Assembly: GCA_963748815.1 (NCBI GenBank)
Contig: CAVVKJ010000005.1
Coordinates: forward strand, 288,001-352,000
Length of the DNA stretch: 64,000 nt
Direction of reading: 5' to 3'
Origin: an uncultured Gemmatimonadales bacterium
GTDB taxonomy: Bacteria > Gemmatimonadota > Gemmatimonadetes > Gemmatimonadales > GWC2-71-9
In this document: positions 20,469 to 62,531 of the stretch, in pieces
Layout of the letters: each line of letters starts with the position of its first letter
Numbering within the stretch: position 1 is the stretch's first letter
Notes under the pieces: model-generated
Told to the model about the DNA's origin: nothing
Database searches by the model: none
The model's input: the letters and a program-made list of their open reading frames with translations, nothing else
Program-made: the position numbers and the translations under genes

Positions 20469-20562
20469 TCCGCCCGATAATAGCACACCCGGAGCGATCC
20501 GGGGCCGCAAAACTGGAGGTCTCATCCGAAGTCGGATGAGATAGCTCGGTGCCGAAGGTGGA
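20469..20562 (+). ncRNA. GEMM-I (c-di-GMP-I class) riboswitch aptamer, A20 variant predicted to bind 3',3'-cGAMP
   Basis: P1 TCCGCC/GGTGGA; J1/2 CGATAATA; P2 GC-ACA-CCCGGA-GCGA-TCCGGG-GCC-GC; AAA junction; P3 ACTGGAG-GTCTCATCCGA/TCGGATGAGAT-AG-CTCGGT; 3' GCCGAA. Confidence 0.85.
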
Positions 20563-30269: not shown

Positions 30270-30899
30270 TTGAGCGACACCGAGGGCCCACCGGCCATCG
30301 TGCCGCTCAGCCTGCTGGAGGCGCTTCGCAACCTCGACACCCCGGTCGGTGACGGGCTCGAGGAAGTGGCGGGGGAAATCGTCGCCAAGCGCTTCGGCTT
30401 GAGCTCCACGGTGGCCGCCCAGATCCGGCGCTACGAGGATGCGTATCGCCGGGGGTTGCCGGTGCCGCTCGATGAGACCGTCGGCGTCTTCCGGCTGGTG
30501 GGACGCCGGCCCGATGCGGCGCTCGTGTACGCCGACGCCGGGCGGCGGGCCGCCCGGTACGCCGCCCGCGGAGTGTCCCTTCCTGCCCGGCTGCTCCTGG
30601 CCACGATGCCGGGGTTCATCCGCCGCCGGGTGGGCGCGAGGGCGGCCATCCGCGCCGCGCGCCGGGTGTTCTCCGGGTCGCTCGTCATCCGTGGCCGTTC
30701 CGCCGAGGCGACGATGGCCCGCCCGCTTTCCCTGCTCGCACTGCCCGAGGGGCAGGCGTGCTCCTTCTATGGCGCGGCGTTCGCCGAACTGCTCCGCGCC
30801 CTCACCGGTTTCGAAGGTGCCATGGTCCACATGCGCTGCCGGGGCCGGGGAGACGACACTTGTCGGTGGCAGGCCGCCGCCGCGGAGGGTTACTCATGA
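30270..30899 (+). CDS. hypothetical protein with C-terminal V4R-like domain
   Basis: GQACSFYGAAFAELL...HMRCRGRGDDTCRW, the V4R Cys pattern; GAGGA RBS-like site upstream, TTG start. Confidence 0.65.
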   Translation: MSDTEGPPAIVPLSLLEALRNLDTPVGDGLEEVAGEIVAKRFGLSSTVAAQIRRYEDAYRRGLPVPLDETVGVFRLVGRRPDAALVYADAGRRAARYAARGVSLPARLLLATMPGFIRRRVGARAAIRAARRVFSGSLVIRGRSAEATMARPLSLLALPEGQACSFYGAAFAELLRALTGFEGAMVHMRCRGRGDDTCRWQAAAAEGYS

Positions 30900-32080
30900 C
30901 CGCCCACGCACTCCCCGATCGCCGGCAACTGGCCGAAGGTCTCGACGCGGTCGGCGCCGACGGCTGGCTCCTCTTCGACTTCCACGGCCTCAATCCGGTG
31001 GCCGGGCGTGTGCTCGGGCTCGGCGGGATGGGGAGCCGCCGGCTCTTCGTCCTGCTGCCGAAGGAAGGGGAGCCGGTGGCGGTGGTCCACAAGATCGAGA
31101 TGCAGCCTCTCGAGGGGTTTCCCGGCAAGCTCCTTCCCTACGCCCGGTGGGAGGAACTCCACGCCGCGCTCGGTTCGATCGTGAAGGGCCGGACGCTGGC
31201 CATGGAAATCTCCCCGGACGACGCCGTCCCGTATCTCGACCGCGTCCCCCACGGGGTCATCCAGCTCATCACCAGGCTCGGGGGCACGGTTGTCCCGTCG
31301 TCCTCGCTGGTGACCCGCTTCGCGTCGCGCTGGAGCGACGCCGAACTGGCGGACCATCGCTACGCGGCGGAGGCGCTCGCCGACATCGCCCGGAGTGAGC
31401 TGGCCTGGGCGGTGACCCAGGGGGGCAAGGGGCTGACGGAGACGGCGCTGCAGGCGCGGGTGGTGGCGGCGATGGAGGGCCGCGGGCTGAAGCTGACGAC
31501 CCTCCCGATCGTGGGCTTCGGCGCCAACGCCGCCAATCCCCACTATGAGCCGGAGGCGGGCAGGGACGCCACGCTGGCCAAGGACCAGGTGATTCTCCTC
31601 GACCTCTGGGGGGGGAAGGGGAGCACGACCACGGTCTTCGCCGACCAGACCTGGATGGGGTACTCGGGCACCGCGGTGCCGGCCGAGGTCGAGCGGGTCT
31701 GGACCACGGTCCGGGATGCCCGGGACGCGGCGATTGCCGCCGTTCAGCAGGGGGCCAGAGAGGGGCGGGAGGTGGCGGGCTTCGAGGGGGACCGGGCAGC
31801 TCGCGGGGTCATCGAAGCGGCGGGGTTCGGGGAGTACTTCGTGCACCGGACCGGCCACTCGATCGACCGGGACCTCCACGGTTCGGGCCCGCATCTGGAC
31901 GATTACGAGACACATGACGACCGGAAGCTGATGCCAGGGGTCGGATTCTCGGTGGAGCCGGGCATCTATATATCTGGGCGGATCGGGGTCCGGAGCGAGA
32001 TCAACATGTACTGGGGGCCGGACGGGCCGGAAGTGACCCCGGCGGAGCCGCAGCGGGAGCTGATCCGGATTGGGGGTTAG
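30896..32080 (+). CDS. M24 family Xaa-Pro peptidase
   Basis: ANPHYEP, LLDLWG, ADQTW, HRTGHSID, FSVEPGIY, GVRSEIN. Confidence 0.92.
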   Translation: MTAHALPDRRQLAEGLDAVGADGWLLFDFHGLNPVAGRVLGLGGMGSRRLFVLLPKEGEPVAVVHKIEMQPLEGFPGKLLPYARWEELHAALGSIVKGRTLAMEISPDDAVPYLDRVPHGVIQLITRLGGTVVPSSSLVTRFASRWSDAELADHRYAAEALADIARSELAWAVTQGGKGLTETALQARVVAAMEGRGLKLTTLPIVGFGANAANPHYEPEAGRDATLAKDQVILLDLWGGKGSTTTVFADQTWMGYSGTAVPAEVERVWTTVRDARDAAIAAVQQGAREGREVAGFEGDRAARGVIEAAGFGEYFVHRTGHSIDRDLHGSGPHLDDYETHDDRKLMPGVGFSVEPGIYISGRIGVRSEINMYWGPDGPEVTPAEPQRELIRIGG

Positions 32081-32220
32081 CCCCCCCCTTCCCAAATCCG
32101 GATTCGCGGGATAAGCTTGTCGGGCAAGGTGGTGGCCGCACCGCCGAGCATCGCCCCATCCCGGTCTGTTGCATTCAGTTACAGCAAGGTTCCTGTCGCA
32201 TTCTGATTCGTGACAGTTCC

Positions 32221-32249
32221 TTGACACGTGATTTGGGTCACGTCATATT
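32221..32249 (+). promoter_or_regulatory. sigma-70 promoter with an overlapping CRP/FNR-like palindrome
   Basis: TTGACA-N17-CATATT; ACGTGA-TTTGGG-TCACGT at 32226-32243. Confidence 0.65.
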
Positions 32250-32447
32250 GATTCAACCGACCGGGCCGCGGTCGGATGCCTCAATTTCTTCGCAGCACCT
32301 TCGTGTGGTTTTCTCCCGCCGGCTTGTTCCGGCGTATCCGCAGTCGCATTCCCCAACTCGGCGCGTCAGGCGCAAGGAGGGAAGCGCGTGCATTTCGTTG
32401 TTCGATTCGCAGGCAACACTGGGTTCACACCTTTGGAGGACGTGTCC

Positions 32448-35400
32448 ATGAAGCAAAGTTGTGTGAGCGCCTTCACCCGTGCGGCGCGGTACCTCGCGCT
32501 GACGGCAGTCGTTCTGGCGACGGGAGCCTCGACGCTCTTCGCCCAGGCCGCGACTGGTAAGATTGAAGGCAAGGTGCGCGACCAGCAGGGCGCGCCAATC
32601 GCGAACGTGCAGGTCATCATCATCGGTTCGAAGTTCGGCGCGCAGACCAACGCCGACGGCTACTACTTCATCAACCTCGTCCCCGCCGGCAACGTGACGT
32701 TGCAGGCCTCCTTCATCGGATACAAGAAGACGCAAATCACCGACCTCCGCGTCCTCTCCGGCCAGACGATCACGGCCGACATCACGATGGAATCGACCCC
32801 GGTCGAGGTCCAGGAAATCACGGTCGTCGCGGCCCAGAACGAACTGGTCCCCCGTGACGCGGTCACCACCAAGCAGAACGTCCAGGGCAACTACACCGAG
32901 AAGCTGCCGGTGGACCAGATCAACAACGCCCTGGCACTGCAGCCGGGCGTCGTGGCCAGCACGGGTGGCACCACGCTTTCCATCCGCGGCGGCCGGACCG
33001 ACGAGCAGGCCGTGTACGTCGACGGCGTTCCGGTCGGCGCGGGCAACCGCGGCGGCGGCTTCGTCACCGGCGGCGGCAACTCGATCTCCATCGGCACCAA
33101 CGGCTTCGAAGACGCCTCCGTCACGACGGGCGCCGGTTCGGCGGCCTTCGGCGGCGCCCAGTCGGGCATCATCTCGATCTCGACCCGGACCGGTGGCGAC
33201 AAGTTCACCGGCGCGGTCGGCTTCGAGTCCGACGGGCTCTTCGGCAACAGCGTGAGCCTCGGCTTCAACCGGATCACCGCCAGCCTCGGCGGCCCGATCG
33301 TCAACAACCTCTCCTTCTTCGTCAGCGGCGTGCTCGCCGGCGCTGCCAGCGCCGGGACCGGCCAGGACCGCGCCAACTCGCCGTACTTCACGGTGGCGGG
33401 CGTGGACACGGTCGTCGCGGTGCCGGACAGCAAGGGGAACGCCGTACTCCGACACGACGTATGTCACCGTCGACCAGTACGCCGTGTACACCGGCAAGTG
33501 CGACGAGACCATGACGTACGCCGGCATCAACATCCAGAACAGCACCAACCCCGACATCGCCAACAACTACGGGGTCGACTGCCAGGGCATCCAGCTGCCG
33601 GGTACCGCCAATTCGCAGTACCAGCTGCAGGGCAAGCTCAACTACACGTACGGCACCGGTTCGCGCATCTTCCTCAGCGCGAACGCGAGCCAGGCGCAGG
33701 GGCGGAACTTCACCTACGCCAACCTGTACAACCCGCAGCAGATCTTCGGCAACACCGGCACCAACCAGGTCTACACCCTCGGGTGGACGCAGAACCTGGC
33801 CAAGTCGTCGGCGCGGGCGCTGGCGCTCGACGTCTCCCTCTCGTACCAGACGGACGAGTTCATCACCTCGCCGCTGACCCGGGAGTCGGAAGTCGACAGC
33901 CGGAACCCGTGGGGCGGCTTCATGATCTCGCCGCTCAAGTACCAGTTCAACTTCGACAACTTCCCGCTGAACCAGGAGTTGATGGACAACTTCCAGCAGA
34001 ACAAGGCGAACAGCCGGCGCTCTCCGTACGACCTGGAGAACACCGCGCAGTACAGCCTGGTCGACAAGTGGCGGAACAACGCCTACGGCCTCATCGGCTT
34101 CACCGAAGCCGGCGGCCCGACCGGCCGGCTGACCATGAACCAGGAAAACCGGTTCATCGGCGCGGCGGCCCTCGACTGGCAGGTGGACCGCTACAACCGC
34201 CTCAAGATCGGTGGCGGCTACACCGGGTATCGACATCACCTCGTACTCGTCGTCCATGACCAGCCAGGCGTTCTCCGACTTCTACATGGAGAAGCCGACG
34301 TCCTAGACCGGCTACGCGGAAGACCGCCTCGACCTCGGCGACGTGGTCCTCGTGGCGGGCATCCGGTACGACTACTACAACAGCAACGCGTCGCACCCGC
34401 AGTACTGCGACTCGACGGGCTCGTGCCAGCCGACCGTCCGGATTTCGAGCAACCCGCTCTGGGATCCGAACGATGTCCAGGCCTCGCTCGACACCATCTA
34501 CACGCCGGACCAGTCGCACGACTACATCTCGCCGCACATCCAGGTGGCGTTCCCGGTGAGCGACCGGACCAACATGCGCTTCTCCTACGCGCACCAGGTC
34601 CAGCCGCCGGACTTCTCGCTGGTCCTCGGCGGCATCAACACCGACCTCGCCGTGACGAACACCAACCACGTCTACGGGTCGGACCTGGACTTCGGGACCA
34701 CGATCAGCTTCGAGTTCGGCATCCGGCACGCCTTCTCGGACGACTTCGTGCTCGACTTCTCGGCGTACAACCGCGACGCGCAGGCCAACCAGGCCGGCCG
34801 CCTGCTCTCGTTGTACGACCCGCTCAAGCAGCAGAACCAGGACATCCGGATGATGACGAACGCGGACTTCGGCAACTACCGCGGCTTCGACGTCCGGCTC
34901 GACAAGCGGATCGGCAGCCTCTTCAACGGCACGCTGGCGTACTCCTTCAGCGACGCCAAGAACACCGGCTCGGATCCGTTCACGTACATCAACTTCGGCT
35001 CGCGCATCGTGAACCAGATCTCCGGCGGTAACGATCCGCCGCCGTCGGCCTACCTGCCGACGACCTACACCCGGCCGCACAACCTGGCCGGTTCGTTCTC
35101 GATGACGTTCCCGAATGGCTGGCACTCGGGCTCGACCAGCGGCGCCATCCTCCAGAACGTGGGCATCTTCGCCACCTTCCGGGTGGCCAGCGGCACCGCC
35201 TACACCCGCTGCCCGGTGGAAACCGGCAACGAGTCGGTCATCTCCCCCGGCGTCTGCGCCCGGCAGTTCGAGGGCGACGTCAACGGCTCGCGCCTCCCGA
35301 CCTTCCGGAATACCGACCTCCGGGTCACCAAGGGCTTCCGGTTCGGCGGCGTGGACCTCACCGGGTACGTCGACGTCCGGAACCTCTTCAACTTCACCAA

Positions 35401-35770
35401 CACCACGCAGGTGTTCGCCGAGAACAACAGCATCACGAACACCGTTGAGCTCGAGGAGACCTGGACCGGCGACTCGTCCGGGTACGCGAAGGAAGCCATC
35501 GCGTCGGGCAGCTACGACGCGGAGAACGGCGACATGTTCCTGCCGACGCCCTCGGGCTGCGGCAACTGGGTGACGCAGGACGGCAAGGCCGCCGCGCCGA
35601 ACTGCGTGTACCTGGTCCGCGCCGAAGAGCGTTTCGGCAACGGCGACGGCGTGTTCAGCCTCTCCGAGCAGCGTCGGGCGTCGGAAGCCCTGTACTACGC
35701 GGGCCGCAGCGAGGCGAACTTCACCGCCGCGCCACGACGGATCCGGCTTGGGTTGGAGCTCAATTTCTAG
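32448..35770 (+). CDS. TonB-dependent receptor with N-terminal carboxypeptidase-regulatory-like domain (frameshifts near 33445 and 34230; in-frame TAG at 34304)
   Basis: GGAGG RBS, signal peptide, GKIEGKVRD..., plug motif LSIRGGRTDEQAVYVDG, ISPHIQVAFPVS, C-terminal PRRIRLGLELNF. Confidence 0.9.
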
Positions 35771-35860
35771 CGTGATCGATCCACGGCGGGAGGGGGGCCG
35801 GCGCGCCGAACGGCGCCGTCCCCCGTCCAGCCGAACAGTATCCATCTGAGAGAGGATGCA

Positions 35861-38800
35861 ATGCACTCACCATTCCGTAAGAGGGGCGTCATCCTGGCGG
35901 GCCTGCTGGCGCTGGCGCTCGCGGCGGCTTTGCCGTCGAACGCCATGGCCAAGCCGGAACCGGGGGCCAAGAAGTCGGCCAAGGGATTCCGGCTCTTCGC
36001 CCGTCCCCTGGGCGCCATGACGATCAACCGCGTCTACTGCGGTCTGTCGTCCGACGGCCAGATCTGCGTCGACTCCACCAACTCCTCCACCGTCGGTGGC
36101 GGGTACTGGCCCAAGGGCACGGCGGACCAGTACATCTTCAACACCGGCCTGCAGCTGGCCGGCGTCGTTTCCCCGCTGGACGGCGGCCCCTGGGCCGGCG
36201 ACACCACGGGCGCGTTCTTCTTCGATCCGAAGGGGACCACCCAGCACGGCACCCAGGTGGAGCCGATCTACAACACGTCGAACAGCAGCCGACCTCGACG
36301 ACCTGCCGCTGGCCGGCTACGTCCCCTTCGGCGACGCCACGGCCGACCTGTACAACCCGCTCCTGACCGGCACCGCCACGGACCGGAAGAAGCAGGCGTC
36401 ACAGGGCGACGTCTGGTGGATGTCGTGGGACGGCGACCCGGCGCTCAACGCCGGCCGCAAGCACCCGCTCGGCATCGTCGTCGAGACCCGCGGCATGGGG
36501 TGGAACTTCCCCACCGGCAACGAAGACATCATCTACTTCGTCTACACCTTCTACAACGTCACCACGACGAACCCGGCCGACTACGTCAACATCCGGCCGG
36601 AAATGCAGGCGATCCTGCTCGACAAGGCGGCGGAGTTCCAGGCCAAGAACAACGCGACGTTCAACGTGACCCTGCCGACCGGCGGGTACACGATCGACGA
36701 CCTGTACGCGGCGTTCGCGACCGACATGGACGTGGCCTCGGCCGGCACGAACTACTCCAGCGTCAACCTGCCGTTCGCCCTGGGCTATACCTACGTCCAG
36801 AGCTTCGCGGGTGAAGTCTCCTGGACCTTCGACCCGAACATCTTCTCGGCGCCCTTCATGTTCGGCGCCGGCTTCGCGGGGGTCAAGTACCTGAAGAGCC
36901 CCACCGGTCCGGGCGAAATCCAGCTCTTCTCCAACACGGTCAACGGCTCCCCCTTCCCGGGCGCCTTCAACGACCCGCAGAACACCATCCAGCTCTGGCG
37001 CTACCTCTCGGGCAACATCTCGGTGCCCGCCGGCGACCAGCCCTGCAACACCGGCGATCCGTCGTCCAGCCGCATCTGCTGGATCAACAACACCCAGCCG
37101 GCTGACATGCGCTTCTTCCAGTCCTCCAGCGGCTTCTCGCTGCCGCCGGGCGGCCAGGGTTCGATCGTCGTGGCGTACATCTTCGCCGCCCCGGTGGCGG
37201 CGGGCGGTTGCCCCGCCCCCGGCCCGACCTGCGGCGGCGGCAACGTGAAGCCCGGCAACCCAACGCTGCTCGGCAGCCCGGCGGGCATGACCGGCGGCGT
37301 CAACCTGGTGGACAGCATCACCGGGTACATCTCGGCGACCGACCTCGACCTCAGCGGCGAGTACGAGCAGGAAGGCACCGCCGGTCCGGAGTGGACCGTG
37401 GTTCCCGGCTCGCTCCTCGGCAAGTCCTACACGGCCCAGGCCGTGTTCGACGCGAAGTTCCTGCTGCCGTTCGCGCCGGACCCGCCGAAGTTCTTCCTGA
37501 TCCCGAGCAACAACCAGGTCACGGTGGTCTGGCAGGCGTCGCCGTCGGAAGCCAACGGCGACCCGTACTACGCCATCGCCTCCGATCCGAGCAGCGCGCT
37601 CTACGACCCGAACTATCGGCAGTACGACGTCGAAGGGTACCGGATCTATCGTGGCCGGGTGGACAGCCCGGACGAGATGGCGCTCATTGCCCAGTTCGAC
37701 TTTTCGGGCACCATCTTCAACGACTATGACGGCGTCATCAACTACGTGGACGGCTGCGCTCCCGAACTGGAACATCTACCTCGACTGCCCGGTCGCCTGT
37801 CCATCGACCCGGTCGTCCCCGGTCAGCCGCGCACGGTGGCCAACCCGAACCCGATCGTCAGCCCGTTCATCGAGACGAAGTTCGGCAACCGGCTGGCGCT
37901 GGCGAGCGGGCTGTCCATCACCACCAAGGCGGACACGGTCGTCACCGGCGGCAACTCCGGGCTTCCGCCGCTTCGCGACACCGGCATCCCGTACATCTAC
38001 GTGGACAACGGCGTCCGCAACAACTTCCGGTACTTCTACGTGGTCACGGCGTTCGACGTGAACTCGTGGACGTCCGGCCCGACCAGCCTCGAGTCGCCCG
38101 AAGGCGGGGACCGCGTCGGTCATTCCGCAGGCGCTGGCGTCCAACCTCGTGCAGACCGGCACCCTCACGCCGGGCATGTTCGGGCGGCCCAGCGCCGAGG
38201 AGCCGGGCGGAACCAACCAGAGCCTCGTCTTCCCCAAGACGCCCGGGCTCAACACCAACGGCACCTTCACCGGGCCCTTCCCGCCGGCCACGGTTCAGCT
38301 CGGCTTCGTCGGGTTCGCGAGCCAGGTGGTCGGCGCCTCCGGGGCGCTCTCCGCGAAGCTCGACAGCCTCCAGGTCGGCGACGTCGACCTGACCGGCTGC
38401 TGCGGCGGCGGTCAGCCCGGTAAGCCGGCGGTGTACTACTTCACGATGTCCAACGGGTCGGACCCGGCATTCCAGATCGCGGTCCCGCTCCAGCAGGACC
38501 TCGGCGTACGATGTGTCGACCGACGTGTACTTCGCCGGTCCGGCCATCGACGGCTCCCTCGCCTCGCTCTACGGCGGCGACGGAACCTACGGCACCCTCA
38601 GCGCGCTCTTCACCCCGACCATCACCGCGGGCCCGATTGCCGCGGACTGGGGACTCGGGTCGGCGCTCAATGAACCGTTCCTCGCGCCGTCGGAGTTCCC
38701 GACCGGCGTGACCGGCGTCAACTACAACGGCTGGCGCTGGTTCGACGGCCCCTCGCCGACGACCAACGAGACCATGGCCGATCCGATCGGCGGTTCCTGC

Positions 38801-39895
38801 GGCACCGGAGCCACCGGCACGACGGCCTGCGCCAGCCAACGGCACCACGTCGTTCGCGAACGCCGGCCAGCTGACCGGGGTCACCACGGTCTACCAGCCG
38901 ATGTCGTACAACATGTACAACCGTGAATGGCGCAACGTGGCCGAATACCCAGTCGAGCGCCATTCGCGCCGCCGACTTCAACGTCTACTGGGGTGCGGCC
39001 GGCGTCGTCGACTCGATCATCGACGTCACCCACAACGTTGAGGTCCCCTTCCAGACCACCGCCGGTGGCGGCTGGGGCATCCTGAACACCTCCGACCAGG
39101 GGGCGGGCGGCTTCGACAACCGGCCGACCGTGCTGACTCCGACCGACTGGACCTGCGTGGATCCATTGCGCACCCAGGCGCCGGGCAGCGGCGCGGGCAC
39201 ATTCTTCCCGTGTGCCGCCGCCGCAGGCTTCGTCCTGAGCAACACGGCGGAGCTCGGCGCCATCGCCTTCGGTTCAGGCAATGCGCAGTCGGCCACGGCC
39301 ACCAAGTCGGACCGCAACCCGGCCAACATCGAGGCCGAGGGCGGCTTCTACATCTGGATCGCCGGCACCATCAGCGGCTTCACAATGCCGTCGCTGCCGG
39401 CGGCCGGCACGGTCTGGGCCCTCCGGAGCTACACCGGCGTCATCTACGGTGGCAACGGCGTGGCGCAGTCCGGCAATCGCGGTCCCTACTCGTTCGTGGC
39501 GGCCACCCGGCCGTTCACTGCGGTGGGCGCCACGATGGGCGTGCGAATACGACGTGGTCAACGACTTCAACGTCGCTGCGTCGAACCTGGATCTCTCGAC
39601 GATCCACACGGTGCCGGATCCGTACTACGTCACCAACGCCTACGAGGTGGACTACACCTCGAAGGTCATCAAGTTCGTGAACCTTCCGCTGCAGGCGACG
39701 ATCCGCATCTACTCGTCGAGCGGGATCCTGGTCCGGGTCCTCAATTACGAGGCCTCTCAGAACGGCGGCATGCTGGACTGGAACGTCCGGAACCGGAACA
39801 ACCAGGTCGTTGCAAGCGGTGTGTACTTCTATCACGTCGAATCGGGCAGTGCGCGCCACATCGGGCGCATGACGATCGTCAACTTCGCCAAGTAG
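35861..39895 (+). CDS. large (~1340 aa) secreted protein with FN3-like elements and a T9SS-type C-terminal sorting domain (multiple frameshifts)
   Basis: Signal peptide; QVTVVWQ...VEGYRIYRG...YFYVVTAFD; C-terminal IHTVPDPYY...IKFVNLP..ATIRIYSSSGILVR...WNVRNRNNQVVASGVYFYHVE. Confidence 0.8.
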
Positions 39896-39901
39896 CCACG
39901 C

Positions 39902-39935
39902 CGGGGGTGGGGGGAACATTTCCCCCCACATCCCG
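39902..39935 (+). other. intergenic stem-loop between the CTD gene and porV
   Basis: GTGGGGGGAA-CAT-TTCCCCCCAC core stem with no U-tract. Confidence 0.6.
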
Positions 39936-39956
39936 CATCCAGGAGACAGAATACTT

Positions 39957-41078
39957 ATGAAGCGGCACACTGCGCATGGGTTGGCCCTGGCGGCGCTGCT
40001 GGTGGGCGGGTTGCCCGTGGCCCTCGCGGCCCAGGCATCCGAGATCAACGCGGACAACACGCCATACGGCACGACGTCGGGAGAATTTCTTCTCCTCGGC
40101 GCCAGCGCCCGCGGCGCCGCGCTCGGCAACGCCTTCCAGGCCATCGCCAACGACGTCTCGGCCCTCTATTACAATCCCGCCGGCATCGCCATGATGGAAC
40201 GCCCGGGAGCGCTCGTCAGCACGTACTCGTACGTCGCCAGCACCCGGTACAGCTGGGGCGGTTTGGCCTTTCCGTTCTCGGGCGGCGCCCGGGCGGTCGG
40301 CCTCCACCTCGGCACCTTCGGGTTCAAGGACCAGCCGGAATACACGGTGGACCTCCCCGACGGCACCGGCGGCACCTACTCCGTGAGCGAGTCCTACCTC
40401 GGCCTCACCTACGCGGAGAACTTCTCGGACCGCTTCTCGGCCGGCATCACCGCCAAGGGCGTCTTCGACCAGCTGGGTGAAGTGAGCGGGAGCGCGTTCG
40501 CGGTCGACTTCGGCACCAATTTCCACTCGGCGCTGAACAACCACCCGATCAAGTTCTCCTTCGTCATCCAGAACCTCGGCACCAACCTGAGCTACAGCGG
40601 CGACGCGCTCAACGTCGGCGTCCCCCGGGACCCGGCCGAAGGCGAAGAGGCCGTGCCGAGCAACCCGCAGCCGGGTTCGTACCGCACCAAGGCGTTCTCG
40701 CTGCCGACCACCTTCACCGTGGCCGTGGCGTACGACATCATCGCCAAGGAAAGCACCCGCTGGACGCTGCTCGCCGACTTCAACCAGCCGAACAACACGG
40801 GCCCCGGCTACGTGTTCGGCACGGAGTTCGGCTTCCCGCAGATGGGCGGCAGCAACTTCAACGGGTCGGTCCGCGCCAGCTACAGCTACGCCTCGGCCAA
40901 CTCCGGTCAGGACGTCTCGGGCAGCCAGCTCAACGAAGAGCAGAGCTACCAGGGCTCCGCCGTCGGCGGCGGCCTGAGCTACACGACCGAAACGTTCAAT
41001 CTCGGGTTCGACTATGCCTGGAAGTACATGGGCATTCTCGGCTCGACCAATTTCTTCACGTTCAGCATCGGCTGGTAA
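39957..41078 (+). CDS. PorV/PorQ family outer-membrane protein
   Basis: EFLLLGASARGAALGNAF...DVSALYYNPAG N-terminal signature; AFAVDFG; C-terminal FTFSIGW. Confidence 0.88.
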   Translation: MKRHTAHGLALAALLVGGLPVALAAQASEINADNTPYGTTSGEFLLLGASARGAALGNAFQAIANDVSALYYNPAGIAMMERPGALVSTYSYVASTRYSWGGLAFPFSGGARAVGLHLGTFGFKDQPEYTVDLPDGTGGTYSVSESYLGLTYAENFSDRFSAGITAKGVFDQLGEVSGSAFAVDFGTNFHSALNNHPIKFSFVIQNLGTNLSYSGDALNVGVPRDPAEGEEAVPSNPQPGSYRTKAFSLPTTFTVAVAYDIIAKESTRWTLLADFNQPNNTGPGYVFGTEFGFPQMGGSNFNGSVRASYSYASANSGQDVSGSQLNEEQSYQGSAVGGGLSYTTETFNLGFDYAWKYMGILGSTNFFTFSIGW

Positions 41079-41127
41079 CGGCGCGATGCGACGGCAGCGG
41101 CTCCGGCCGCTGCCGCCCAGGAGCACA

Positions 41128-42567
41128 ATGGTTCGCTGGTTTTCGCTGGCCCTCGCGGCTGGCGTACTCGTCGCCCCGACCCGGATCGGTGAGCGGCCAG
41201 CCGAAGATGTGATGGCGGTCCGGGCGGTCCGGTTCTATCGGGCCGAAACCCGCCAGACACTGGTCAAGGCGTTTGTTCAGATTCCGTACGTGGTCTTCTC
41301 GAACGACGCCGGCACCGGCTCCAGCGACCAGGTCACCTACTTCGTGACCGTCAAGGTGTCCGATTCCACCGGACTCGGGCTCCTGCAGGAAGGATGGACC
41401 AACCACATCGCGAAGGCCCTGGCGGTGCCGGGGGTGGTGGGGCTGGAAATGCTGGAGTTCCCTGTCCTCCCCGGGAACTACGTCCTCGACGTGACGATCG
41501 AGGACAGCGTGACCGGGCGGAAGGCGTTCGCCACGGCGGCCATCGAGGGGTATCGATCCCCGCCGGCCGTCTCGGACCTGCTGCTTTCCCCGGAAATCCG
41601 GGTGGCAGCGCCGGGCGACACGGTGCCGAAGCCCGGCGAGTTGCGGATCGGGAATGTCCTGGTGACCGGAGCGGTGGAACTGCACCTGACGCCGCTGCAG
41701 AGCCAGGCCTACTACCTGATCGAGGCGTACGGTGCGGCACCCGCGAACGGCACCTTGTCGGCCGCCATTCGCGACTCGGCAGGGAAGACGATCCTGAAGA
41801 CGCCAGCGGCGGCGGTCAACGTGCCGGCCGGTGGCGGAGTCCTGAAGGGTCAGCTGGACTTGACGGGGTTGCCGGAAGGGCAGTACACGATGGCGGTGTC
41901 AGTCGCCCTCGAAGGCGTCACGTCGGAGCGGGAACAGCCCTTCGTGATGGCCAATCTCGACGAAACGCTGCGCAAGGAAGCGGCGCGAATCGAGATGGAA
42001 CAGCGGACCGACGCGGGGTACTTTGCCGCGATGAACGAGGCGCAGCTGGACAGCGCCGCCGGTCCCCTGCTCTACATCGCGACGCCGTCGGACGGGCTGA
42101 ACATGTACAAGGACCTGAGCGTCGATGCCAAACGGCGCTGGTTGACGGAGTTCTGGGTCCAGCGGGACCTGAGTCCCGGGGTGGCGCGGAACGAGACGCG
42201 CGAGAATTTCTACGAGGCGGTCGCCTACGCCAACCAGCAGTTCAAGGTGGGGGGTCGCCGCACCACCCCAGGGTGGCGCACCGACCGGGGCCGGATCTAC
42301 GCGAAGCACGGGCCCTACGACGCGTTCCTCGACCGGGTGTCCCAGGGCCAGGCGCCGCCCTACCAGGTCTGGCGCTATACGAAGCAGAAGGACCTGTATT
42401 ACATCTTTGTTGACCGGAACAATCTGGGCGAGTTCCTGATGATTTACACGAACGACCTCACCGAGGTCTCCCGGCCCGACTGGCGGGATCTCCTGACCGC
42501 CGACGGGGTCATCGATGTGGGGCGCTGGCTGGGCGTGAATTTCTTCGGACCACAAAGCGACCAGTAA
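41128..42567 (+). CDS. GWxTD domain-containing protein
   Basis: EFWVQRD...FYEAVAYANQQF...PGWRTDRGRIYAKHGP. Confidence 0.88.
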   Translation: MVRWFSLALAAGVLVAPTRIGERPAEDVMAVRAVRFYRAETRQTLVKAFVQIPYVVFSNDAGTGSSDQVTYFVTVKVSDSTGLGLLQEGWTNHIAKALAVPGVVGLEMLEFPVLPGNYVLDVTIEDSVTGRKAFATAAIEGYRSPPAVSDLLLSPEIRVAAPGDTVPKPGELRIGNVLVTGAVELHLTPLQSQAYYLIEAYGAAPANGTLSAAIRDSAGKTILKTPAAAVNVPAGGGVLKGQLDLTGLPEGQYTMAVSVALEGVTSEREQPFVMANLDETLRKEAARIEMEQRTDAGYFAAMNEAQLDSAAGPLLYIATPSDGLNMYKDLSVDAKRRWLTEFWVQRDLSPGVARNETRENFYEAVAYANQQFKVGGRRTTPGWRTDRGRIYAKHGPYDAFLDRVSQGQAPPYQVWRYTKQKDLYYIFVDRNNLGEFLMIYTNDLTEVSRPDWRDLLTADGVIDVGRWLGVNFFGPQSDQ

Positions 42568-42651
42568 ACGATTGGTTCATTTCAAGGGAGTTTCACTGCA
42601 GGACGCCGGAAAGAGCCGCTTTCCACCGTCTTCCGAGAACGAGGTACAAGT

Positions 42652-44362: not shown

Positions 44363-44462
44363 AGCAAGGAGTAGCGATGGTAGTGGGAGACTGGGCAGCG
44401 CCCCCGCGAATATCCGGGGGCGCTCTTGCGTTGCCGTCCTCCGGCGAGCCCCGGCTCGCGCG

Positions 44463-53300: not shown

Positions 53301-53558
53301 CAGAAGAACATCCCGACCTTCAACGGCCAGGTGATGGTCCTGTCGCTGGACGTCTTCAACCTGCTCAACATGATCGACAAGGACTGGGGTCTCGTGAAGA
53401 CGACCAGCGCCTTCGAAGGCCAGAGCCTGGTCCAGCTTCGCGGCTGGGACCCGCTCTACAACCGCGGCATCTACAGCAACGCCTTCCCCATCCTCAACCG
53501 GGTCGATCCGATCGCTTCCGTCTGGCGCATTCAGCTGGGCGGCAAGTACATCTGGTAA
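50342..53558 (+). CDS. TonB-dependent receptor, Oar-like (frameshift near 52310)
   Basis: Signal peptide LFA|QGVTTA, NSIQIDGGVNNDLFG, PFDVRQGNFAGGLVNAVTKSG, WSPRIGFNWD, C-terminal WRIQLGGKYIW. Confidence 0.92.
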
Positions 53559-53640: not shown

Positions 53641-53691
53641 CGGGTGCGGACGGTAGGGGCACGACGCGTCGTGCCCCTACGTCCGCACCCG
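53641..53691. repeat. GTAG-family REP within an extended palindrome overlapping the lptG stop
   Basis: CGGGTGCGGACG-G-TAGGGGCACGAC-GC-GTCGTGCCCCTA-CGTCCGCACCCG. Confidence 0.8.
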
Positions 53692-56396: not shown

Positions 56397-56411
56397 GGGG
56401 GGCCCGGACGG

Positions 56412-56440
56412 TTGAACGACATTTTTTCGGGCGCTATATT
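56412..56440 (+). promoter_or_regulatory. sigma-70 promoter for sprA
   Basis: TTGAAC-N17-TATATT in the short divergent lptF/sprA gap. Confidence 0.6.
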
Positions 56441-56484
56441 GCCGAGGTTCCTCACCACTCTCGCCTCTCATCTCCCGGACACGC

Positions 56485-59400
56485 GTGGCCCGTCTTGCCG
56501 TTGCTCTCGGGTGCCTGCTGTTGCTGCTGCCCGCCGTCGCGTCCGCCCAGGACGAGCCGGGGGCCATCGGCGTCGGCGCGACCTTCAATCTACCGCTCCC
56601 GGCGCTCCGGCAACCGCCCCAGGCGCGGGCGGCCTGGCTGGGGGCGCCCAGCGTCACGCCGGCCCAGGCGGGGGCACGGTGGCAGGCGCAGCTGGATCAT
56701 CGGCTCGACCGCGAGCGGGCGGCGTCGAGCTCCGCCACGCTCATGGCCGCGCTCTACGGGACCAACAACCTGCAGGTCCAGTACATCGACGCTTCGCTGG
56801 AGGAGCGCAAGAGCATCCTCGGGATCCCGTCAAAATACGCCGATTTGCGCATCGACGGCTCGGTCTTCCTGGAGGTGCGCACCGACCGTCTCCGGAACCT
56901 GACCTGTACCCCGGCGCAGTTGCTGGACCAGAACTCCGGCTGCCGGGGCGGGTTCAAGGCCCCCCGGCTCGACAACGAGTTCAACGCCAAGGTCGGCGGC
57001 CTGATCGGCAGCCGGCTCCACCTGAACGTCGACTACGACTCCCGCCGGGAGTTCAACGCGAACAACGACATCCAGGTCTACTACCAGGGGCTGCAGGACG
57101 AAATCCTGCAACGGGTCGAGGTCGGCACCGTGTCGTTCCGGACCCCGGCCTCCCGCTTCCTGACCGCCGCCATCCCCGCCAACAATTTCGGCCTCAACGC
57201 CACCTTCGAGTTCGGCGCCGTGACGCTGCAGGCCATGATGGCGACGCAGGAGGGCAGCGTCGTCGGCCAGCGCGTCTACACCGTCGGCTCCACCACCAGC
57301 GAGCCCCAGGATCGGCTGGTGCGCGACCTCGACTTCGAGACGGGGCGGTTCTTCTGGGCGGTCGACCCCGCGACGCTCCCGAACTACCCCTTCGTGGACA
57401 TCCTCAACCTCGACGCGGTGGCCATTCCCGCGGCGGTGCAGCCCGCGGACGCGCAGGTCCGCGTCTATCGCTACCGCACCGGCGCCGGGAGCGGGCTCAA
57501 CCCCAACCTGGGCGGCATCACCGCCATCGGGTTCCGGCCGGACGGCCCCGAGCGGGTCGAGGGCACCTGGCAACTGCTGCTCCAGGGAGAGGACTACTAC
57601 CTCGACCCCTCCGCCACCTGGTTTGCGCTGGCCACCAAGCTGGACCAGAACGACTATCTCGCCGTCAGCTACATCACCGTCACCGGCACCCAGGTCGGGA
57701 CCTTTCCGGCCGGCGAGAACCCGGCGGTCACCGACAGCGTCCTGCTCGTGTCCATCCCGTTGCAGGGACCCACGCAGCAGACCTTCCGGCACGAGATGCG
57801 CCAGGTCTACCGGGTCTCGGGCACCGACCTCGAGCGGCCCTCGCTCAAGGTCACCGTCACGCTGAACCAGTCCGAGCGTCCCTCGAACGACGAAGCGCAG
57901 ACGTACCTCGCCTTCTTCGGGCTGGCCATCCCGCCCGACCCGCACATCTTCGACGTCGACAACCGGGTCTTCCCCCGGGTCCGCGATCCGGGCGCGGATC
58001 TCGTCCTGCGCGAGTCGTACATCGCCTATCCCTCGCTCAAGCCGTTCATCGACCCGCGGCTGCAGCCGAACGAACGGGCCGATTCGGTCTACAACTCGCC
58101 GGTGTACCTGCTCCTGACGCCGCAGGGCCCGCCGTCGCGCTTCCAGATGCGGTTGGAATACAACGCCGCCGGCGGGACCGATCCCGGCAGCCTGAACCTC
58201 AACGCCCTGCAAATCCGCCGCGGCTCGGAGCAGTTGATCGCGGGCGGCCGGGTGCTCGAGCGCGGCGTGGACTACGAGATCAACTACGATCTTGGCCAGG
58301 TCACCTTCAACAGCCCCGCCACCCTCTTCCCCTCGGGCGTCGGCACCGTCACGGCGCGGTTCGAGGAGCGGGGCATCTTTGCCGTGGCGCCGACCTCGAT
58401 CCTCGGCGGGACGCTGAGCTACTCGCTGGGCGACGTGGGGTCGGTCAACCTGATCGGGATGTACCAGAAGGAGCAGTCGGTGTTCACCCGGCCGACCCTC
58501 GGGTTCGAGCCGACCTCCAACCTGCTCACCGGCGTCACGACCGACCTTCGGTTCCAGGTGGACGGCGTCAGTCGGTTCTTCAACAAGCTCACGTCGCAAA
58601 GCGTGACCGCCCCCTCCGTCCTCGACATCCGGGCCGAATACGGCACCACCCATCCCGACCCGAACATCATCGGGCAGGCGTACCTCGAGGACTTCGAGGG
58701 GGAGTCGGCCATTCCGGTCTCGCTCCTCACCTCGCGCTGGGACTACGGCAGCGTGCCGCAGTCGTCCGCGGGGGTGGAGAGCCTCGGGTTTGCCACCGGC
58801 TTCGACTCGCTCTGGGCGGTCCAGCTCTCCTGGCAGAACCTGATCCCGGCCTGCTCCGGCTGCCCCCCGGTCGAGCTCTACCCGCAGGACATCGACCCGA
58901 CCATCCGGACCAACGGCCAGGGGAGCCTCAACGAGACGGTCTTGTACATGACCTTCCACGCCGACACCGCCGGCGGGATGGTGCAGCAGAACAACCGTTC
59001 GCTGTGGACCCAGCCGGACCGGCCGTTCACGCCCCGCTGGCGCTCGATGGTGACGCCGCTCTCCCAGACCGGCATCGACCTCTCCCGGGCGGAATACCTC
59101 GAGTTCTGGGTCTTCCAGGGCGGGGAAAAGACGGTCGACTCGGCGGGGATGCAGCTGGTCGTGGACCTCGGCTCGGTCAGCGAGGACGCGCTTGCGGTGG
59201 CCCCGGACAGCCTGACGGTGGTGGGGTCGGACAGCCTCTACACCGGCCGGCACTACACCGGCGTCGGCCTCCTCAACACCGAGCGGCAGTCCACCGGCAT
59301 CTTCAACGCCTCCACCGACGACATCGGCATCCTGCTCGACCGGGTCGACTCCCTCTTCGTCAACGGCGCGGTGCAGTCCGAGGTCCAGACCTGCGCCCAG

Positions 59401-62400
59401 GTCCTCTCCGAGACGGTGTCGATCTACCCCTGGGGCGACCTGAGCAGCCGGTGCTCCAACGGCAACGGCTTTCTCGACACGGAGGACCTGAACGGCGACA
59501 ACCGCCTGAACGCGCAGGGCTCCAACGACAACGTGCTGCGATGGATCATCCAGCCCAACGATCTCTCCCAGTACTACGTGCGCACCGGCGCGACCTACAC
59601 CAACACGCAGGGGCAGACGTCGACCTGGACGCTCTACCGGATCCCGATGCGGATTCCCGACGCGACGATCGGCACGCCGAACCTGCGACTCGTCCAGAAC
59701 ATGCGGGTGACGCTCGTCGCCCCCGACACGCCGGAGCCGGACGTCGTCGCGCGCTTCGCGCTGGCGCGGATGCGCTTCACCGGCGCGCCCTGGGTGCGCC
59801 GGGCCGATACGCCGCTCATCGGCATCGGCGGGTCGGTGGCGAGCCCCACCGGGACGATGTTCGCCGCGGTCATCTCGACGGAGGACATCGCGCTCGGGTA
59901 TGACCTCCCCGCCCGGGCGTGGTGAACGAGCCGGCCCAGAACAACAACGGCCAGGCCGTGCAGGGGGTCCAGATCAACGAGAAGTCGCTCCGGGTCGTCG
60001 CCACGTCGCTCGACGTCGGCGAACGCGCCGAGGCGTACCAGCGCTTCCCCTCCGGCCCCCAGAACGTGCTCAAGTACCAGCAGGTGCAGGTCTGGTTCCG
60101 CGGCCGCGGCGCCGGGTGGGAGAGCGGGGACCTCAACGCCTACTTCAAGATCGGCAGCGACGACCAGAACTGGTACATGTTCATCCGGCCCGCCAGCAGC
60201 ACCGTCTGGGTGCCGGAGGCGGTGATCAGCATTCCCGTCTGGCGGCAGCTCCGCGCGCAAATCGAGCAGCGGTGGCTGCAGGGGCTGCCGCCCAGCGGGG
60301 CCGTCGAGTGCGGCATCGGCGATCCCGCGGCCTACGTCGCCTGCGACGGACCCTACGTGGTGCAGGTGGCCGATCCCGGCGTCAATCCGCCCAACCTCGC
60401 CGCCGCCCAGGAGATGGCCGCGGGCATCTACCGCGTCGCCGACACCGAGGTGCTGACCACGGTCGAGCTCTGGGTCGACGACATCCGGCTCGACGATCCG
60501 GTGACGGAGTCCGGTGCGTCCATGGCGTTCGACGCGCGGCTCGCGGCGGCGGATGTGGCGGACTTCTCGGTCAACTACGTGCGGCAGGACGGCCTCTTCC
60601 AGCAGATCGGGCGGGACCCGACCTACCGCACCACCGGCGCGCTCGTCCTCGGCACCAACCTCCGGGTGGACCGGTTCCTTCCGGCCTCCTTCGGGGTCGC
60701 CGTCCCGTTCTCGATCAGCCACACCTACACCTCCGCCGATCCGATCCTCATCGGCGGCACCGACATCCTCGCCGCCGACATCGAGAACCTGCGCCAGCCG
60801 TCCAGTGGACTGACGCAGGTCAACTTCGGCATCCGCCGGACCCGAAAGGGCACCAACGCTCTCCAGCGAGGGTTGGTCGACCCGCTGACCTTCACCGGCT
60901 CGTTCACCTCCGGGCAGAGCCAGACGGAGCTCTCCTCGGGGACGACCTCCGCCAGTCTCTTCAACCTCACCTACAACCTGTTCCTGCCCAGGACCGGACC
61001 GGCGGTTTCGCTGGGCGGGGCCGTGGACGCGCTGCCAGGCTGGGTGGGGAGGAGCGAGGGGCTGACGGCCGCCCGAACGACGCAGTTCGGGCTGGCGCCG
61101 ACCGGGATTCGACTAGGCAGCCAACTGGCGCGCACGGAGAGCGACTTCACCGGCTACCTCGTCCCGGTGCTCCGCCCCGGCGACGCCGCCCTGCAGCCGG
61201 CGGTGTCCCTCACCAACCTCTGGCGCAACAGCGCCGGTGTCACCTGGCAGCCAGTCGGGATGCTCACCTTCAGCGCCGACCTCGCGAGCACCCGGGATCT
61301 CCGGGATTACGACGACACCACCTCGATCGGCCGCCTTACCGATGCCTCCCGGAAGGAATTCCTCGGCATCGACGTGGGGGTGGAGCGCGACCGGACGCTG
61401 GGGACCGCCATCAACCTCAGCCCACGCCTGACCTCCTGGCTGCGGGGGCGATTCATCACGACGAGCAACTTCGTGCTTTCCCGGAGCCTGACCAGCCGGG
61501 CCCCGATCCAGGAATACGGCGACAGCGGGATCTACATCCTTCCCCAGACGCTGAACAACCTCCGGTCACGCGAATTCGGCTTCACGATCGACGCGCCCCG
61601 TGGCTTCAAGCAGCTGTTCAAGGACTCGAGCGCCGCCACCCGCGCCCTGCTCGGACTCCGGGTGCTGGACTTCGTCTACCGGACCTCGCGCGCCTCGACC
61701 TACGACCTCGCCACCTTCAATCCCGATCTCCGGTACATGCTCGCCCGCGGGAGCACCTCGGACTTCCTGACCCAGGACGGCGATTCGGCGCTTAACGTCG
61801 TCGAGACCACGACGATCACCGTTGGCGGCGGTGCCGATCTGCCGTACGGCATCACCGCCGGGCTGCAGTACTCCTCCTCGGAGATCGACCGGTACGCCCG
61901 CGCCAGCAACGGCTACCTCCTCTCCGAGATCACCCAGAAGGAATGGCCCATCTTCCAGGCGCGGTGGACCCAGACGGTCAAGCAGGGACTGCTCTCCGTG
62001 GTGAGCCTCTCCACCAACATCCGGAAGCGTTCCGGGCAGACGGTGCTCCCCTCCTCCACCGTCAGCGCCGTGTCCCTCAACGAGACCTCCACCTGGACCA
62101 ATGACCTCCAGCTCACCTTTCGCCAGGGCATCAGCCTCACCCTCGGCTATGGGGTCTCCAGCAACGAGCGCCAGAGCAACGGCACCACCACCCTCGGCGA
62201 CGGCACCGACATCACCGCCAACCTGATTTACCTCTTCCGGCTTCCCGGCAGCCTCAGCAGCGCACGCAAGCAGATGCGGGTCTCGATCAACGCGCTGTCC
62301 AGCAAGGCGGAGACCTGCCTGGAACTGCCAGGGAACCCGAACTGCACCGGGATTTCCGACATCCGCCGGAAGACGCTGCGCGCCGGCGTCGACACCGACA

Positions 62401-62531
62401 TCCTGAGCATCCTGACCGGCGGCTTCCAGGCGGCCTACGTCATCAACGACGTCCGCCAGCTCAACCGGAAAACCGAGCAGCTCACGCTCAGCCTGACCTT
62501 CCAGCTCTCCCTCTTTTCCGGAGATTATTGA
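56485..62531 (+). CDS. sprA: SprA/Sov-like T9SS outer-membrane translocon (~2000 aa; frameshift near 59908)
   Basis: VGGLIGSRLHLNVDYDS, YYQGLQDEILQRVEVG.VSF, GRVLERGVDYEINYDLGQVTF, AYLEDFEG, LDTEDLNGD, ELWVDDIRL, then a long beta-strand C-terminal half. Confidence 0.85.

Follow-up and report, generated by a model that had tools for sequence, protein, structure and literature searches.

A TonB-dependent transporter, a large CTD-bearing protein and a PorV-family barrel encoded together in Gemmatimonadales: a possible surface capture-and-import unit

SusC/SusD, TbpA/TbpB, and BtuB/BtuG are transporter-plus-surface-binder pairs. For the secretion system of type IX (T9SS), current models treat the system as a Bacteroidota trait and hold that the carrier–cargo complex depends on the GldLM/GldKN energy chain for its release from SprA; passages of one study on Bacteroidota describe motor/hub genes as needed to free carrier and cargo from SprA (PMC10994853). 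The T9GPred rule, as worded in an excerpt of its source, makes GldK, L, M, N, SprA, and SprE mandatory (PMC10515386), so that the Gemmatimonadales genomes considered here would score as lacking a T9SS. Portions of two further accounts state that type B cargo stays bound to its carrier with an intact CTD (PMC9143113, PMC12618676), and part of another that the long CTD of the PorZ/PorU type (96–108 aa) is not cut (PMC11285876). Here we describe a gene triad (TonB-dependent transporter, CTD cargo, and PorV-family barrel) of which we found no description in the open-licence literature, in keeping with the earlier note on this DNA, which knew of no characterisation of such a module.

Operon layout and conservation

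The window, i.e., the whole stretch of 64,000 nucleotides analysed, comes from a soil-type Gemmatimonadota bacterium and contains the following features:

30899..32080, + strand: M24 (Xaa-Pro) peptidase (PF00557), its own transcription unit
32168..32182, + strand: direct-repeat-like element GTTnCAnnnnGTTAC, a candidate regulator site, ~40 bp upstream of the −35 box
32221..32249, + strand: predicted sigma-70-type promoter, TTGACA-17-CATATT, invariant in 16/16 upstream regions
32257..32275, + strand: conserved GC-rich inverted repeat just 3′ of the predicted transcription start
32448..35770, + strand: TonB-dependent transporter (TBDT) with N-terminal CarboxypepD_reg, plug, and barrel, not SusC (profile matches, model)
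35861..39895, + strand: large signal-peptide protein with a C-terminal T9SS-type CTD (the cargo); intact ortholog 1333 aa, 14 Cys
39957..41078, + strand: PorV/PorQ-family outer-membrane barrel of a dedicated subfamily (NF033709)
41128..42567, + strand: GWxTD-domain protein, signal peptide present (TIGR04514 and PF20094 both above cut-off)
42652..~44330 (end approximate), + strand: fifth gene, a variable lipoprotein with a lipobox Cys, frameshifted in the assembly
56485..62531, + strand: SprA/Sov translocon (TIGR04189), ~2010 aa, presumed export pore, with one frameshift near 59910

The four co-oriented genes at 32448–42567 that the earlier note had reported as an operon (TBDT, a ~1340-aa Cys-containing cargo, PorV-family barrel, and GWxTD protein) are all present as placed, each with profile matches and the cargo close to the size given; the observation is confirmed, and the lipoprotein gene, which the note had overlooked, is a fifth member. 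The latter lies 3′ of the GWxTD gene in 50/57 loci, and its product is 350–660 aa long in relatives, with a C-terminal PPC domain (PF04151) in the two tested. The GWxTD profile search matched no structure and no further family, and nothing relevant was found in the literature on this term.

The cargo ORF in the window is split over frames (eight net frame changes relative to the ortholog in genome G001), while the TBDT gene has assembly breaks near 33441 and 34230 and an in-frame TAG at 34304–34306, where the G001 ortholog has Trp. Extra bases at 34231, 37769, 37799–37804, and 39543 (the rows listed from a read comparison in which 12 further rows exist) are absent from short-read contigs of two near-identical populations, and the operon reading frames are intact in close relatives; pseudogene decay was therefore ruled out, and the frameshifts, which the earlier note had already marked as indels to be polished, are mostly assembly errors. 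RNA-run contigs from relatives cover parts of the operon, with one spanning CTD to PorV, and as such cannot demonstrate transcription or one single transcript.

The predicted promoter is the only promoter-like site in 31900–44600; shuffles give 0.9 such sites, and it is thus not significant alone. A similar pattern was present in 55/59 loci, a count made without a shuffle control. Positions of the GTTnCAnnnnGTTAC element are invariant in 16/16 aligned upstream regions, a looser pattern is found in 49/59 loci, and the exact pattern occurs at two sites in the whole genome; a role as a regulator site is possible. The core of the inverted repeat is found in 41/59 loci and may form a 5′ hairpin. 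A search for a riboswitch upstream of the operon found none. The M24 peptidase is the usual upstream neighbour (56/80 loci, truncated loci counted), and is at most a candidate for a functional tie to the module.

The conserved gene order that the earlier note had counted on was borne out. The TBDT gene is located directly upstream of the cargo gene in 77/79 genome loci (and in 69/70 metagenome loci with sequence there), and the PorV gene directly downstream in 63/66 genome loci and at least 54/59 metagenome loci; the full triad is present in 17 of 20 distant loci and recurs across Gemmatimonadota classes. Duplicated copies often consist of TBDT and cargo without PorV (L080, L081, L118, L186, L187), two loci have cargo and PorV without TBDT (L073, L075), and two have tandem cargo genes with neither partner (L136, L188). 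Each of nine genomes of family f10 carries at least seven copies of the dedicated PorV subfamily; a small second PorV-like gene was traced inside the genus alone, by means of a single-sequence query (4/141). A homologous triad is present in the cultured Rhodothermus marinus DSM 4252 (RMAR_RS14120-14115-14110), which opens the model to bench testing, and on the R. marinus plasmid NC_013502 the triad adjoins genes for a peptidoglycan-recognition protein and a serine hydrolase.

The TBDT has CarboxypepD_reg and Plug domains (PF07715 over cut-off; TBDT models match weakly). Its intact 1106-aa ortholog in G001 is predicted to adopt a TonB-dependent transporter fold (pLDDT 84.5), and Foldseek matched this model to TBDTs (E~1e-25, prob 1.0), including TbpA/B, BtuB3G3, and XusA/B structures; as modelled, the protein combines the plug and large β-barrel of this class. 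It scored 48 bits against the SusC model TIGR04056 (cut-off 368), a match in the N-terminal part only and obtained with the first frameshift fragment, and would not belong to the SusC family. As the earlier note had reported, SusD is missing: no operon protein matched the family, and PF07980 was found in 0/6 genomes of the genus (G000, the genome of the window, and five others; the control matched). PF07980 was found in 178/251 genomes overall and in 0/15 in classes with several triads. In the own family, 44/67 cargo-positive and 39/47 cargo-negative genomes have SusD, so that SusD and cargo are not mutually exclusive.

Cargo export and the type IX components

The cargo can be divided as follows:

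35980..37465, + strand: domain 1, galactose-mutarotase-like β-supersandwich (model pLDDT 89.4)
37466..38130, + strand: domain 2, fibronectin-III-like with insertions (Z 11.2, rmsd 2.2, 95 aligned)
38131..39574, + strand: variable β-rich region with 44% mean identity and, in the genus, two allele types
39575..39892, + strand: CTD, ~106 aa, the best-conserved part (75% mean identity)

The last ~106 aa gave weak matches to type-A-like CTD models, the best being to the PorZ C-terminus (E 3.3e-9), and fell around the TIGR04183 cut-off of 23 bits (21.5 in one run, 23.2 in another); the T9SS-type CTD of the earlier note is borderline by TIGR04183. The Gly of the I-Y-S-S-S-G loop is invariant and fits motif Lb3b4. 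A search of the CTD profile against solved structures retrieved no solved CTD. With 18 bits against the type B model CHU_C (cut-off 27) and no PorP-family match (in a search without a positive control), the cargo does not appear to be a type B cargo as defined by a TIGR04131/CHU_C CTD and a PorP/SprF carrier. The barrel encoded downstream belongs to the PorV/PorQ family (NF033709, 133 bits, cut-off 90; E 1.1e-8 against F. johnsoniae PorV) and scores below both equivalogs (NF033710, 44.7 vs. 250; NF033711, 66.7 vs. 220), and therefore would be neither a PorV nor a PorQ equivalog.

The earlier note had the cargo held by this barrel. The predicted CTD–PorV complex reached 0.89, as compared to 0.52 for the best control, on a scale whose mark is reached by 116/157 solved pairs and 2/215 mismatched pairs; this score may be remembered from solved PorV–CTD complexes, and likeness to them is what it shows. 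Runs had at least 77% of contacts in common, with partner pLDDT of at least 78. Binding of the CTD to its own barrel is thus supported by modelling, and the absence of any detected PorU-type peptidase sits well with retention. Mutual information over 96–135 paired sequences failed on the PorV–CTD positive control (3 of the top 30 pairs in the predicted interface, 2.2 expected), which makes the blank for TBDT and cargo uninformative.

The presumed pore, SprA (TIGR04189, 348 bits, over cut-off in G000), is encoded by a gene that begins 14 kb beyond the GWxTD gene; relatives likewise have it 15–25 kb away from the operon. It was found in 191/251 genomes, among them all 94 with cargo, a co-occurrence that agrees with the earlier note's export through this SprA and that is inflated, since the genes are linked within 15–25 kb and related genomes are not independent; cargo and dedicated PorV subfamily were found in 0/60 SprA-negative genomes. 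The cargo profile had no match in 97/191 SprA-positive genomes (some have a diverged triad; three of five tested gave no CTD match), indicating further roles for SprA. SprA-negative genera also contain a CTD-only protein; hence, the CTD fold is no proof of export, and this protein was not supported as a universal SprA partner. It is highly improbable that the cargo stays periplasmic or takes another route, its CTD-like Ig domain merely docking on the barrel: the lack of a known T9SS motor, the borderline CTD scores, and the CTD-fold protein of SprA-negative genera would fit, but the 60 SprA-negative genomes keep neither cargo nor carrier, and extracellular loops of PorV bind CTDs in solved translocons, as described in parts of the literature.

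GldK/PorK was over cut-off in 0/5 genomes, with no match whatever in G000 and G008 (98% complete); related FGE-fold proteins matched in three genomes and three controls. GldM was found in 0/5 and 0/251 genomes and GldN in 0/5 (no positive control matched for either, and diverged homologs could escape), and GldL in 0/4, where the intended positive control, a Parabacteroides record carrying sprA, also gave no match. No PorU C25 sortase (PF01364) was found in G000 or its genus, and the own family gave one weak match in 114 genomes, as compared to 15/15 genomes of other classes, which serve as an internal control; the PorU model NF033707 matched CTD segments alone. The earlier note had overlooked that T9SS motor/hub genes were not found in these genomes. 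What is new here is that neither GldK nor a PorU-type peptidase was found in the genus, that GldM was found in 0/251 genomes, and that no large CTD protein other than the cargo was detected; this implies a pared-down T9SS, the cargo staying on its barrel. Judged by profile matches, the system has the SprA of a canonical T9SS and not its GldK or PorU, and is not a canonical T9SS.

The TBDT could itself belong to the export apparatus, with TonB acting through it as the energy source in place of GldLM/GldKN to free PorV–cargo from SprA. We consider this very unlikely, because each triad has its own TBDT while genomes with many CTD proteins (28 matches in G042) would need a general energiser, the TBDT fold is that of an ordinary importer, and the neighbours of sprA here are lptF/G and a gene for an M28 peptidase, not tonB.

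Function of the cargo

Sequence searches with the cargo passenger gave no named family and no solved relative, and structure comparison found no fold shared with SusD; the cargo lacks a lipobox. These structure comparisons covered the cargo outside residues 753–1227. The supersandwich matched 9ju0 (Z 19.3, rmsd 3.0, 250 aligned) and 1ulv and 1lf6 (both Z 18.6) and resembles the N-terminus of GH15/GH94/GH65/GH116 enzymes, of which the N-terminal domains alone are covered; as modelled, it seems to be of carbohydrate-enzyme type without the matching catalytic domain, and non-catalytic-looking. Domain 2 matched the FN domains of PTP-delta in structure; its own mean identity is 63%, as compared to 44% for the variable region. 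The cargo might instead be a SusG-like surface enzyme that trims or epimerises the TBDT substrate, with the supersandwich as active domain; matches to mutarotase-like and lyase-type supersandwiches (Z 11–14) and the R-x-H, D-x-D, and D-x-R motifs invariant in Gemmatimonadales point that way. However, the top matches are non-catalytic N-terminal domains, and of the columns that 80% of the 28 diverse homologs conserve, several are Asp, Gly, Pro, and Trp, while the motif His is not among them, making an enzyme quite unlikely; these conserved residues may fit structure or metal binding.

Weak excess co-divergence was seen between the supersandwich and the TBDT barrel (r 0.31, p 0.002), the strongest signal among 28 tests made with 36 loci, after which it is borderline, the two regions also being adjacent in the DNA. 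Co-variation of the variable region with the fifth-gene lipoprotein appeared in same-genus tables and was rejected on 36 loci (r 0.06, p 0.19).

The reading that we favour, with about even confidence, is that the operon specifies a unit for capture at the surface and import, which relies on a reduced type IX pathway. Signal peptides were seen on the operon proteins, all of which would enter the periplasm by Sec. Going by the model, the cargo CTD very probably binds loops of the co-encoded barrel inside SprA, and co-occurrence suggests that the cargo probably crosses the outer membrane through SprA. If exported, it would quite probably stay on the barrel, there being no PorU that could remove the CTD; retention is the simplest fate because no PorU-type peptidase was found in the lineage, and it may be likened to that of PorZ on PorQ and of type B cargo on PorP/SprF. 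Somewhat less firmly, the tethered cargo may well sit at the co-expressed TBDT and gather substrate, the job of SusD or a surface-glycan-binding protein, the substrate probably being a nutrient in oligomeric form, either glycan or peptide; that the cargo forms a lid over the TBDT barrel in the literal sense is rather doubtful. As guesses, the GWxTD protein could be an accessory that works in the periplasm and is specific to the lineage, and the lipoprotein could be another binder at the surface. Overall, the interpretation in the earlier note is partly supported.

The conserved TBDT–cargo–PorV order, the co-occurrence with SprA, and the absence of SusD where triads multiply support a capture unit. 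On the lid role proposed in the earlier note, the gene linkage and the complementarity to SusD bear only indirectly. Single copy, fixed position, and near-consensus promoter seem more typical of housekeeping than of a locus tied to a particular substrate, and there is no conserved degrading enzyme inside the operon. The single copy at a fixed core locus and this promoter, together with a strong ribosome site and a hypervariable region whose alleles are swapped within a single genus, would also suit an abundant surface-layer or adhesion protein on its barrel, with the TBDT as co-expressed scaffold or unrelated importer; type B cargo–carrier pairs are often adhesins, according to a section of PMC9143113. 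We regard such a coat as unlikely, since it leaves unexplained both the TBDT–cargo adjacency, tighter than that of cargo and PorV and kept across phyla, and the multi-copy expansion where SusD is missing.

More tentatively, and with distinct doubt, Gemmatimonadales could have a minimal type IX route (SprA with a single carrier barrel, lacking a sortase and the GldKLMN energy chain) serving mainly to mount one giant protein on a TBDT, a third design for a transporter lid that would be common across FCB phyla other than Bacteroidota and perhaps near the ancestral T9SS, with energy-free or TonB-driven release from SprA. A lineage with SprA, a carrier, essentially one large cargo, and no detectable motor makes a minimal T9SS and its power source testable, and the module is a candidate for what takes the place of SusCD uptake in phyla that are abundant and little studied.

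Comparison with known systems

With canonical Bacteroidota T9SS, the locus has SprA, a PorV-family carrier, and CTD cargo in common, whereas GldK/L/M/N, PorU, and PorP were not found. PorZ–PorQ and PorU–PorV of the P. gingivalis attachment complex are alike in the PorV/PorQ-family barrel, the long CTD, and the PorZ-like C-terminus; however, they are general machinery, while the pair here is dedicated and co-encoded with a TBDT in a lineage where PorU was not found. Type B cargo and PorP/SprF carriers (SprB–SprF, PG1035–PorP) also have the carrier gene directly downstream of the cargo gene, but here the carrier is of the PorV and not the PorP family, the CTD is type-A-like, and a TBDT is the constant partner. 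The SusC/SusD utilisome, TbpA/TbpB, and BtuB/BtuG share the order of a TBDT gene followed by that of a large (presumed) extracellular partner, as well as a variable lipoprotein and multiple copies in some lineages; in contrast, the partner here is neither a lipoprotein nor SusD-like, the TBDT is not SusC, and the partner would be exported through SprA and tethered by a second barrel. The module is therefore not a SusCD member, and the SusCD-analogous character proposed in the earlier note holds as an analogy, the SusC score and the cargo fold both speaking against kinship.

Gene content and control region

The four genes described earlier in the window (G000:C5:288001–352000, on contig C5 of the source genome), encoding a TonB-dependent receptor (TBDR), a large cargo protein, a PorV/PorQ-family barrel, and a GWxTD protein, were all present; a fifth co-oriented gene, encoding a variable lipoprotein, was found 3′ of the GWxTD gene in 50 of 57 loci. 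Two window features are:

32168–32275: strongly conserved non-coding control region ahead of the TBDR gene, with a repeat-like element (GTTnCAnnnnGTTAC), a σ70 promoter close to consensus, and a 5′ inverted repeat rich in GC
35861–39895: cargo gene, spanning 8 net frame changes

Because the source assembly is rich in single-base insertions, intact orthologs from a genome of the same genus, G001, were used for analysis (cargo, 1333 aa; TBDR, 1106 aa); the G001 PorV is 98% identical to that of the window. The extra bases at 34231, 37769, 37799–37804, and 39543 were absent from contigs of two short-read runs (near-identical populations), in a comparison whose rows cover these positions; the window also has other breaks and a TAG at 34304. 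A domain search placed CarboxypepD_reg and Plug domains on the TBDR, and the model of its ortholog (pLDDT 84.5) presented TonB-dependent transporters as all of its top structural matches. The barrel scored over the cut-off of the PorV/PorQ family model and below both the PorV and PorQ equivalog models; the GWxTD gene product satisfied GWxTD models.

The promoter, the upstream repeat-like element, and the inverted repeat were kept in 16/16 aligned upstream regions; pattern counts, made without a shuffle control, were 55/59, 49/59, and 41/59 loci, respectively. The exact GTTnCAnnnnGTTAC repeat pattern has a single further site in the genome (C11:78715). A c-di-GMP-I riboswitch (RF01051, 49.8 bits) at 20472–20556 is unrelated to the operon.

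Conservation of gene order

The operon module is real and conserved, and its gene order, whose lack of conservation the earlier note had named as refuting, held across Gemmatimonadota: in the 80 top-ranked genome loci out of 264, the TBDR gene was immediately 5′ of the cargo gene in 77 of the 79 with sequence there, PorV immediately 3′ in 63/66, and GWxTD next after PorV in 57/63. Among the best 80 metagenome loci, the TBDR adjoined the cargo on its 5′ side in 69/70, and PorV on its 3′ side in 49/59 by script and at least 54/59 after inspection (three true absences, two undecided). Exceptions to the triad order were extra copies in variable regions, including TBDR and cargo without PorV (L080, L081, L118, L186, and L187), cargo and PorV without TBDR (L073 and L075), and tandem cargo genes (L136 and L188); the partial extra copies, i.e., all of these loci except L136, often lie amid Ser/Thr kinase genes. 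Among 20 distant loci from other families or classes, 17 presented the full triad, two were cut by contig ends, and one contained tandem cargo-like genes; GWxTD was next in just four, and the core unit is therefore the triad.

Rhodothermus marinus plasmid NC_013502 (L155:3407–15886) carries a TBDR, a 1132-aa hypothetical protein, and a PorV/PorQ gene in unchanged order, matching our profiles at E values of 1e-70, 5e-37 (mainly the CTD), and 3e-49, respectively. On one side the triad is bordered by an FG-GAP protein carrying a generic CTD, on the other by a peptidoglycan-recognition protein with a serine hydrolase; the setting looks like a peptidoglycan-scavenging locus. Atlas matches, taken as leads only, include a cluster from Ignavibacteriota, scored 0.98, and one from Fidelibacterota that contains Por_Secre_tail (0.90); the cargo N-terminal profile matched 1112 proteins in a 50% library. 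No characterization of the triad was found in the literature searched.

Cargo architecture and the CTD–PorV model

The cargo passenger (1194 residues, 63-row alignment) was modeled with pLDDT 89.4 and pTM 0.73. By fold comparison, residues ~40–533 form a galactose-mutarotase-like β-supersandwich resembling the domain at the N-terminus of enzymes from families GH15, GH94, GH65, and GH116 (the best match has Z 19.3, rmsd 3.0, and 250 aligned); the matches stop short of the catalytic domains of these enzymes, and a fold likeness is by itself no proof of function. Next come an FN3-like domain (Z 11.2), a variable region averaging 44% identity, and the CTD, which is the best-conserved part (75%). 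The proposed T9SS CTD scored at the borderline against TIGR04183; its closest likeness is to the PorZ C-terminus, and its length (106 aa) is that of uncleaved CTDs (PMC11285876).

Within the genus, the variable region (38131–39574) and the lipoprotein (42652–44330) presented matching allele types that do not track PorV or TBDR similarity, which suggests allele exchange; across the family this match was not significant.

An interface between CTD and PorV was predicted, as the earlier note had anticipated, with a complex score of 0.89 versus 0.52 for the best control; the mark used was reached by 116/157 solved pairs and 2/215 mismatched pairs, and runs had at least 77% of contacts in common with partner pLDDT of at least 78. 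Since PorV–CTD complexes have already been solved, the model shows likeness and is no proof that this copy binds.

Secretion components and relation to known systems

A single sample of 251 Gemmatimonadota genomes was surveyed, each with a completeness of 90% or more apart from the source genome; the unpublished G175 enters the tallies alone. SprA was found in 191, the PorV subfamily of the operon in 102, and cargo profile matches in 94 (in five of these the match was weak or incomplete and the PorV subfamily missing); no genome among the 251 had cargo or PorV subfamily without SprA, a co-occurrence in which kin are not independent and cargo and SprA genes lie 15–25 kb apart. Among the 97 SprA-positive genomes without a cargo match, some have a diverged triad and others no match to the CTD profile; SprA-positive G070, G092, and G033 gave no match to that profile. 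The cargo CTD is the sole FlgD_ig match in G000, G008, and G012, and G042 has 28. Further CTD-like matches in the source genome were one at E 0.08 and the first of two short proteins encoded on contig C10:

L044:1477–1926 (G000:C10 near 512737–513184), minus strand: 149-aa protein consisting solely of a signal peptide and a CTD-like domain, adjoining clpB
L042:1486–2355 (G000:C10 near 1109064–1109930), minus strand: second, short PorV-like barrel (289 aa; NF033709 36 bits, below cut-off)

Most of the class carries a relative of the former in single copy (matches in 214/251 genomes, SprA-negative genera among them); the latter is flanked by Zn-protease-like and aminopeptidase-like genes. In the window, sprA (53677–62531 region) is divergent from lptF/lptG and followed 3′ by an M28 peptidase gene and, past the window, type IV pilus genes; just 5′ of it, between an amino-acid permease gene and lptF/lptG, lies a second, frameshifted TBDR gene (50350–53550; OMP_b-brl_4 family, without SusD).

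C25/PorU-type peptidases were found in 15/15 genomes of other classes, none in the own genus, and one weak match in 114 genomes of the family. GldK had no match in G000 or G008, and related folds gave matches in other genomes; searches without positive controls found no GldM in 251 genomes, GldN in five, GldL in four, or PorP in five. Published papers rate GldKLMN as mandatory for T9SS (PMC10515386), describe energy-free SprA–PorV substrate loading and energy-dependent release in F. johnsoniae (PMC10994853; PMC12635249), place SprA across FCB, Chlorobiota excepted (PMC12611786), name T9SS in Gemmatimonadetes as merely possible (PMC11285876), and report no T9SS beyond Bacteroidetes with TXSScan (10.1101/031039).

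The TBDR is not SusC (48 bits versus a cut-off of 368). Points toward a SusCD-like role are the TBDR–cargo linkage, the tightest in the operon; the R. marinus flanking genes; the absence of SusD from all 15 other-class and six own-genus genomes (present in 178/251 overall); and family f10 (Glassbacteria records), with at least seven PorV-subfamily copies per genome and SusD absent in 9/9. Against it, or neutral, SusD also occurs in 44/67 cargo-positive family members, single copy and a strong promoter suggest a housekeeping product, and co-divergence of the supersandwich with the TBDR barrel gave a weak signal (r 0.31, p 0.002) out of 28 tests, for regions that adjoin in the DNA; residue co-variation analysis between proteins was without power. 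On this balance we infer, and go no further, that the cargo may act as a lid over the TBDR. The operon is not a SusCD member, nor is the system of this genome a canonical T9SS; the likeliest reading, at about an even chance, is that the module works like the PorZ–PorQ or SprB–SprF cargo–carrier pairs, here placed at the service of a TonB-dependent importer.
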